32,000 nucleotides of DNA, from NCBI GenBank assembly GCA_021498095.1, contig JAIZWK010000001.1, positions 600,001 to 632,000 of the forward strand. The letters run 5' to 3'. Made by a program: the position numbers and the translations under genes. Under the pieces are notes generated by a model. The model had not been told where the DNA came from. It ran no database searches and worked only from the letters and a program-made list of their open reading frames with translations. Origin of the DNA: Candidatus Harpocratesius repetitus. GTDB taxonomy: Archaea > Asgardarchaeota > Lokiarchaeia > Sigyniarchaeales > Promethearchaeaceae. Positions 9,636-9,820 of the stretch are shown here, piece after piece (the first letter of the stretch is position 1; the number at the start of each line of letters is the position of its first letter).

Positions 9636-9820
9636 ATTTCCATTGGAAATTGTATAATATAAAATATTTTTATTATAATAAATATAAAATAATAAAATTA
9701 AAGCCCCATTAATAATTTACTTCATTATTTTTAAATATTATTAATTATCTACGCATAATATGTCAAATAAAATATAAGAATTCTATATTCCACTGGAAAT
9801 TAAACCCTTCCAAATGTAAT
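9636..9820. other. Candidate replication origin: ORB-like boxes flanking an AT-rich unwinding element
   Basis: TTCCATTGGAAATT (9638-9651) and TTCCACTGGAAATT (9788-9801); mini-ORB-like TTACATTTGGAA on the minus strand (9808-9819); 9653-9702 contains no G or C. Confidence 0.55.

Follow-up and report, generated by a model that had tools for sequence, protein, structure and literature searches.

An inverted pair of ORB-type boxes around an AT-rich element as the probable chromosomal replication origin of Candidatus Harpocratesius repetitus

The window analyzed here is a stretch of 32,000 nucleotides, positions 600001-632000 of the closed 4.36-Mb genome of Candidatus Harpocratesius repetitus (31% GC). 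Within it, two short boxes face outward from a strongly AT-rich spacer, in an interval bordered by small open reading frames (ORFs). A preliminary description, made from the window alone, had proposed this interval as a replication origin: a pair of origin recognition boxes (ORBs) on either side of a DNA unwinding element. The features of the locus, in window coordinates, are:

9122-9496, plus strand: ORF of 124 aa that abuts the candidate origin; contains a Cys cluster; conserved only within the genus.
9621-9651, minus strand: ORB-L, an initiator-type box, read outward; core TTCCAATGGAA (9648-9638), then ATACAACACTCTTTCTC.
9652-9787, no strand: predicted DNA unwinding element; fills the space between the boxes, has ~12% GC and contains the G/C-free run 9653-9702.
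9703-9715, no strand: central G/C island GCCCCATTAATAA, near the spacer midpoint, placed by alignment.
9788-9811, plus strand: ORB-R, an initiator-type box, read outward; core TTCCACTGGAA, then ATTAAACCCTTCC.
9863-10084, minus strand: small ORF of 73 aa between the candidate origin and the winged-helix gene; confined to the genus; no family match.
10150-10425, minus strand: small winged-helix (wHTH) gene linked to the candidate origin; its product has an invariant PRTT(I/L)YD motif and an RGRP wing.
10637-11098, plus strand: gene of 153 aa, divergent from the wHTH gene; weak RHH_3 match, below the cut-off.

The two boxes, TTCCATTGGAAATT at 9638-9651 and TTCCACTGGAAATT at 9788-9801, start exactly 150 bp apart, as the preliminary description had it, and their cores occupy 9638-9648 and 9788-9798. 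That description began the locus at 9636, which is 2 nt to the left of the first box; with these 2 nt included, 9636-9650 forms a perfect palindrome of 15 nt. Aligned as an inverted pair, the boxes are identical at 17 of 21 positions, and an inverted, outward-facing pair is a better description of them than direct repeats.

When one mismatch is allowed, the window contains four matches to the 14-mer, versus 0.35 expected from window shuffles. The 11-nt core TTCCANTGGAA has 18 copies genome-wide, versus 22.6 expected under a third-order Markov model, and the remaining 16 all fall within ORFs of at least 100 aa; the two neighboring copies at the locus are therefore the only intergenic ones. Scatter of the motif upstream of many genes had been named beforehand as the mark of a regulator site. 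With 16 of the 18 cores lying within ORFs, such scatter is not what is found, which speaks against a dispersed regulator site. The host genome contains no further ORB pair. A genome-wide search for the boxes with two mismatches returned 133 chance clusters and was uninformative.

Two weaker sites lie nearby. A third core, ATCCAATGGAAAA, is located at 9348-9360, inside the 124-aa ORF and 290 bp to the left of ORB-L, and is not conserved in congeners. The other had been put forward as a third box of mini-ORB type: the minus-strand TTACATTTGGAAGGG is indeed present at 9805-9819, partly within the sequence that extends outward from the right box, but it is not kept in the congeners compared and is not a conserved site. 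A non-coding RNA was also considered and rejected: the window has no Rfam match, the RNA folding z-scores are -0.47 and -1.70, and the latter arises only from pairing of the two boxes.

The core at the locus, TTCCA(N)TGGAAAT, is the core of the archaeal ORB consensus, printed as CTTCCAGTGGAAACGAAAGGGGT (PMC4153887, PMC1868953). This agrees with the identity proposed in the preliminary description. The euryarchaeal consensus reads GTTCCAGTGGAAAC-AAA----GGGGG (PMC1868953), and the ORBs of Methanomassiliicoccales include GTTCCATTGGAAAT and GTTCCACTGGAAAC variants (PMC4153887). Both boxes match the ORB dyad core TTCCAGTGGAAA plus AAT in full. In core, TTCCA(G)TGGAAA(T/C), and in the arrangement of inverted pairs, the locus resembles Pyrococcus oriC, Haloferax oriC1 and the ORB pairs of Methanomassiliicoccales (PMC1868953, PMC4153887).

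The G-string is another matter. It is absent after either box, in line with the caution originally attached to the proposal; the extensions are ATACAACACTCT and ATTAAACCCTTCC, the latter, that of ORB-R, being pyrimidine-rich at the canonical GGGGT position. ORB-L is therefore mini-ORB-like, the pair as a whole is of mini-ORB grade in the host genome, and Orc1 affinity may be low as a result.

The two inverted boxes flank an AT-rich element, and the composition of that element is as extreme as first reported: 15 G/C in the 130 bp of 9651-9780, and none in 9653-9702. Only two A/T-only runs of at least 50 nt exist in the 4.36-Mb genome, one of them in this spacer, and 130-bp windows equally rich in AT fall into only 19 separate regions genome-wide. 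The equivalent spacers of relatives have 13-28% GC. Near the midpoint of the spacer lies the central island, in which GCCCCA at 9703-9708 aligns as the flipped counterpart of the mid-spacer CTGGGG(C/T) of the sister family. The island is conserved within families and its sequence differs between them. It is possibly a site for an accessory factor, as ucm is in Sulfolobus oriC1 (PMC12141716).

Conservation in relatives, suggested at the outset as a check on the proposal, is evident: throughout the order, the syntenic locus retains the box pair. At the DNA level, a search of relatives finds the wHTH gene and the divergent gene (10637-11098) conserved across the family, the rare core in 9 of 10 loci, and a congener match that begins exactly at the first box. 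With the protein as anchor, the wHTH gene is found in 52 of the 61 genomes of the order. Among 30 loci of ~3.2 kb anchored on this gene (29 relatives and the host genome), the core is perfect in 16 and has no more than one mismatch in 27, against ~0.013 expected per locus by chance. In most of these loci the boxes are inverted and separated by 146-158 bp, and the spacer has 13-18% GC. A mobile-element origin of the module was rejected because synteny of the wHTH gene, its divergent neighbor and the boxes holds throughout the order and the locus lacks a tRNA gene.

The sister family is useful for inferring what the host boxes have lost. Read outward from the AT-rich center, its box consensus is TTCCAnTGGAAATaaAGGAGT (TTCCAgTGGAAATnnAGGAGT), a full ORB, with the G-string AGGAGT at canonical spacing from the core. 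These boxes equal the Methanomassiliicoccales form TTCCAGTGGAAATGA-AGGGGT except for an AT-rich linker and one base of the G-string, and they stand as inverted pairs, with 146-158 bp between them and 13-18% GC in the spacer. They form the only paired site genome-wide in all five sister-family genomes that were scanned whole. In the family of the host, the box extension is instead a pyrimidine-rich tract. Comparison of the two families suggests that the G-string half decayed in the host's family, leaving boxes of mini-ORB type.

No initiator gene lies in the window, as the preliminary description had also remarked. Genes with a Cdc6_C domain are located at 708 kb, 902 kb (the best score) and 2228 kb of the genome, so that the nearest is 98 kb and the best-scoring one 292 kb from the locus. 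No ORB-like boxes or repeats were found beside the four cdc6-type genes of the host, upstream regions included. Origins of the euryarchaeal and pan-archaeal ORB type, in contrast, adjoin orc1/cdc6 and carry GGGGT; relative to these, the host boxes resemble mini-ORBs and stand apart from the initiator gene.

The link missing here is present elsewhere among Asgard archaea. In several other families, canonical ORBs (TCCAGTGGAAAcaAAGGGGT), G-string included, flank the orthologue of the 902-kb orc1, and a homologue of the wHTH gene is present in those same loci. A closed 1.418-Mb genome has the layout ORB(-), 213 bp, ORB(+), wHTH(-), orc1(+) (L194:6652-9550), and the ORB-wHTH-orc1 layout is identical in two further Asgard families. 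In these other Asgard families (also L195-L199), the wHTH gene stands between the ORB pair and orc1. Outside the order, the distance between wHTH and the main orc1 is at most 1.9 kb in 29 of 31 genomes. Inside it, none of 11 genomes shows such proximity: the two genes are 292 kb apart in the host and 112 kb apart in one relative, and the remaining genomes have them on separate contigs. The pair in the window is thus the positional homologue of the orc1-linked Asgard origin. These layouts indicate that either orc1 or the origin has moved, and that the wHTH gene stayed with the boxes. The likely history would involve: an ancestral Asgard gene order of ORB pair, wHTH gene and orc1; departure of orc1 in the host's order, the origin keeping its wHTH neighbor; and decay of the G-string half of the ORBs in the host's family.

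Two observations concern the orc1 genes themselves. In the sister family, the relocated orc1 is preceded, ~50-65 bp before its start, by one or two ORB-like cores in degenerate form (L171:2839-2851, L173:2138-2150, L185:2822-2853, L193:2866-2897), which may serve autoregulation or be left over from the old origin. In one congener, the orthologue of the main orc1 (L165, G002 contig C11:56668-58005) is reported to contain two in-frame stops, TAG and TAA; these may reflect an assembly error or a pseudogene.

The genes around the boxes in the host end toward each other, 9122-9496 on the plus strand and 9863-10084 on the minus strand, in agreement with the convergent gene ends first described. Both have homologues within the genus, and the arrangement at the locus differs in other genera. 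The 124-aa product of 9122-9496 has a sub-threshold match to an FtsK-gamma-like winged helix (E 0.003). On the far side of the wHTH gene, the 10637-11098 gene lies in the place that orc1 takes in other Asgard families.

The wHTH gene is the constant neighbor. Its longest ORF starts at 10425; all relatives begin at MVDL, which corresponds to 10395 or 10398, so one of these is probably the true start (81-82 aa). PRTT(I/L)YD and (R/K)GRP are invariant in the protein across the phylum, and the AlphaFold model is a winged helix (pLDDT 81) with RGRP in the wing. Sequence and fold matches are generic: the Lrp/AsnC N-terminal domain, Lrs14, Phr, Stf76 and MarR. There was no match to the Cdc6_C or Cdt1 families, Cdt1/WhiP entries are absent among the top 50 fold matches, and the product of 10150-10425 does not have the tandem winged helices of a WhiP/Cdt1-like initiator. 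The notion that it is a detached winged helix of Cdc6 is unsupported, because its matches are only to generic winged-helix proteins. A co-fold prediction of Orc1 with the wHTH protein scored 0.00, which speaks neither for nor against binding.

Such matches raise another reading of the boxes, in which a dimeric transcription factor, perhaps the wHTH protein encoded next to them, uses them as operators to control neighboring genes and they have no role in replication. Phr, MarR and Lrs14-type proteins are regulators, the 5-1-5 palindrome is typical of dimeric ones, and the boxes are strictly linked to the wHTH gene across the order. Against this, the boxes of the host lie downstream of two convergent 3' ends, their core equals the ORB core, and there is no other intergenic copy in the genome. 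The asymmetric G-string of the sister family would be needless for a symmetric dimer site, boxes of this kind recur beside orc1 in other Asgard families, and the locus coincides with a switch in strand composition, described below. An operator function without replication is accordingly improbable.

Strand composition was analyzed in three closed genomes. Raw cumulative GC skew in the host has its minimum at 525 kb, 85 kb from the locus, and its maximum at 2.39 Mb, and is noisy. Because raw skew and gene-strand bias are noisy or confounded by gene orientation, they were replaced by an orientation-corrected codon-3 skew, in which the values of minus-strand genes are subtracted from those of plus-strand genes. 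Corrected GC3 and AT3 each show two sign changes, one near 0.5-0.65 Mb and the other at 2.70 Mb. Their combined cumulative curve has its minimum at 588 kb, with a bootstrap 95% interval of 584-627 kb that spans the locus (609.7 kb), and its maximum at 2.697 Mb, nearly diametrically opposite; the skew inflection that had been anticipated for an origin is thus present. Taken separately, the codon-3 GC and AT switches of the host are ~100 kb apart (~500 kb vs ~640 kb). The second 50-nt A/T-only run of the genome, at 2,618,805-2,618,854, is ~80 kb from the terminus-type switch at 2.697 Mb.

Two relatives place a switch at the same module. In the closed 6.04-Mb genome, AT3 switches at 3.324-3.328 Mb, within ~12 kb of the syntenic locus (3.336 Mb). 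In the closed 4.32-Mb genome, with skew sampled over the whole genome, the plateau of the global AT3 maximum at 206-290 kb contains the locus (271 kb), and the minimum is at 2.26 Mb; the best cdc6 gene, at 1 kb, is away from this switch, and GC3 polarity at the locus is opposite in this genome. The three closed genomes are related and therefore do not count as independent. Genes pointing away from the locus make up only 35-48% of those within 50-200 kb in the three genomes, and genome-wide co-orientation with the inferred replichores is 51.7% in the host.

A sign change of this kind has two possible meanings. Skew polarity is not universal in archaea (PMC12999951), and the genes do not diverge from the locus; the skew therefore marks a replichore boundary and does not by itself favor an origin over a terminus. 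If the locus were a terminus or another landmark, such as a dif-like or segregation site, a switch would likewise be expected, archaeal polarity rules being unreliable, and genes do tend to face the locus in two relatives. This reading is nonetheless highly improbable. Inverted ORBs around an unwinding element do not resemble a dif-type site, which is single and ~28 bp long; orc1 adjoins the homologous module in 29 of the 31 other Asgard genomes; and the polarity to the right of the locus in the host, with G>C and T>A on the top strand, has the usual leading-strand sign. It is the ORB architecture, together with the orc1-linked homologues, that identifies the boundary as an origin.

The locus unites an ORB-type sequence architecture, uniqueness in the genome, conservation, positional homology to orc1-linked loci and coincidence with a strand-composition switch. 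Core identity, conservation, the orc1-linked homologues and the skew switch all support the ORB-DUE-ORB interpretation given in the preliminary description, and 9621-9811 (genome ~609.7 kb) is very likely the main, and probably the only, functional chromosomal replication origin. Judged by its sequence, the locus appears to belong to the ORB-type class as a variant that is unlinked from its initiator, linked to wHTH and devoid of the G-string.

If initiation proceeds as modeled on Sulfolobus oriC1 and Pyrococcus oriC, the sequence of events would involve: binding of both inverted ORB cores by the canonical Orc1/Cdc6, encoded by the 902-kb gene 292 kb away, via its winged-helix domain; recruitment of MCM by Orc1/Cdc6 onto the 136-bp, 12%-GC unwinding element; and the start of melting there. 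By the same analogy, Orc1 binding, MCM loading and firing would all take place at the locus.

An ORB pair can also be bound and silent. The boxes might be occupied by Orc1/Cdc6 and yet be dormant or purely regulatory, with initiation elsewhere, at an unrecognized origin, or dependent on recombination. Several features are compatible with this: the G-strings are lost in the host's family, Orc1/Cdc6 paralogues number three or four in the genome, the genes nearby are not oriented as expected around an origin, and origin-independent replication is documented in some archaea (PMC11005403, PMC12993045). However, strand composition switches at the locus in three genomes, neither the host nor five relatives have a second ORB pair, and no such boxes occur upstream of the cdc6-type genes. 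An extreme AT-rich spacer, moreover, would be needless for a regulatory site, and here it is conserved. A dormant or regulatory pair is accordingly unlikely, and a functional origin is the preferred reading.

The closest described counterpart of this functional origin is oriC1 of Sulfolobus/Saccharolobus, in which an ORB3-DUE-ORB2 core is served by Orc1-1 and a central ucm motif is bound by UBP (PMC12141716). In both, two inverted Orc1-type boxes flank an AT-rich element, the core being 130 bp in oriC1 and 150 bp start-to-start here, and in both a short motif sits mid-element, ucm there and here the GCCCC/CTGGGG island, which is conserved within families. They differ in that oriC1 has orc1-1 adjacent and full-length ORBs; here orc1 is 292 kb off and there is no G-string. 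The UBP study reports the ubp gene in Desulfurococcales and Sulfolobales and regards it as a recent acquisition there; its authors raise the question of comparable origin factors in other lineages (PMC12141716). UBP, limited to these two orders, is a beta-rich saddle protein; the protein linked to the locus here, a putative origin binder, is an unrelated small winged helix.

Sulfolobus oriC3 offers a different comparison. It is specified by a neighboring winged-helix, Cdt1-like initiator, WhiP, and does so without classical ORBs; WhiP is a larger protein with two winged-helix domains. As at oriC3, the conserved neighbor of the present locus is a winged-helix gene rather than orc1/cdc6. Unlike oriC3, the locus has classical ORB cores, and its protein is a single winged helix of ~82-91 aa.

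These comparisons allow a tentative proposal for the wHTH protein. One possibility, less probable than not, is that it is an undescribed Asgard-wide origin accessory factor that would bind the central island or the AT-rich minor groove and act with Orc1 and MCM; the origin of the host's order would then be specified in trans, by an initiator whose gene lies hundreds of kb away, with its cofactor in cis. This hypothetical role would be analogous either to that of UBP at ucm or to that of a licensing cofactor.

A literature search returned no paper that defines an Asgard replication origin, and a 2026 review mentions none. The present analysis would place the origin of a whole order at one 190-bp locus. 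The order includes the closed 4.32- and 6.04-Mb genomes, whose strains may be in culture. The locus does not coincide with the cdc6 gene: the 4.32-Mb record has its base 1 at the best cdc6, ~270 kb from the box pair. It is a direct target for marker-frequency, ChIP and EMSA work, a candidate autonomously replicating sequence for future Asgard vectors, and a reference point for peak-to-trough growth estimates from metagenomes. It also brings to light, in the archaea most closely related to eukaryotes, a winged-helix gene that is conserved and linked to the origin.

Finally, the module shows signs of local rearrangement. The central island is flipped in the host's genus relative to the sister family, and in two relatives (the congener G001, locus L006, and G006, locus L008) the block of wHTH gene, neighbor and small ORF has the opposite orientation with respect to the boxes and flanks. 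This pattern suggests recurrent inversions at or across the inverted ORBs.
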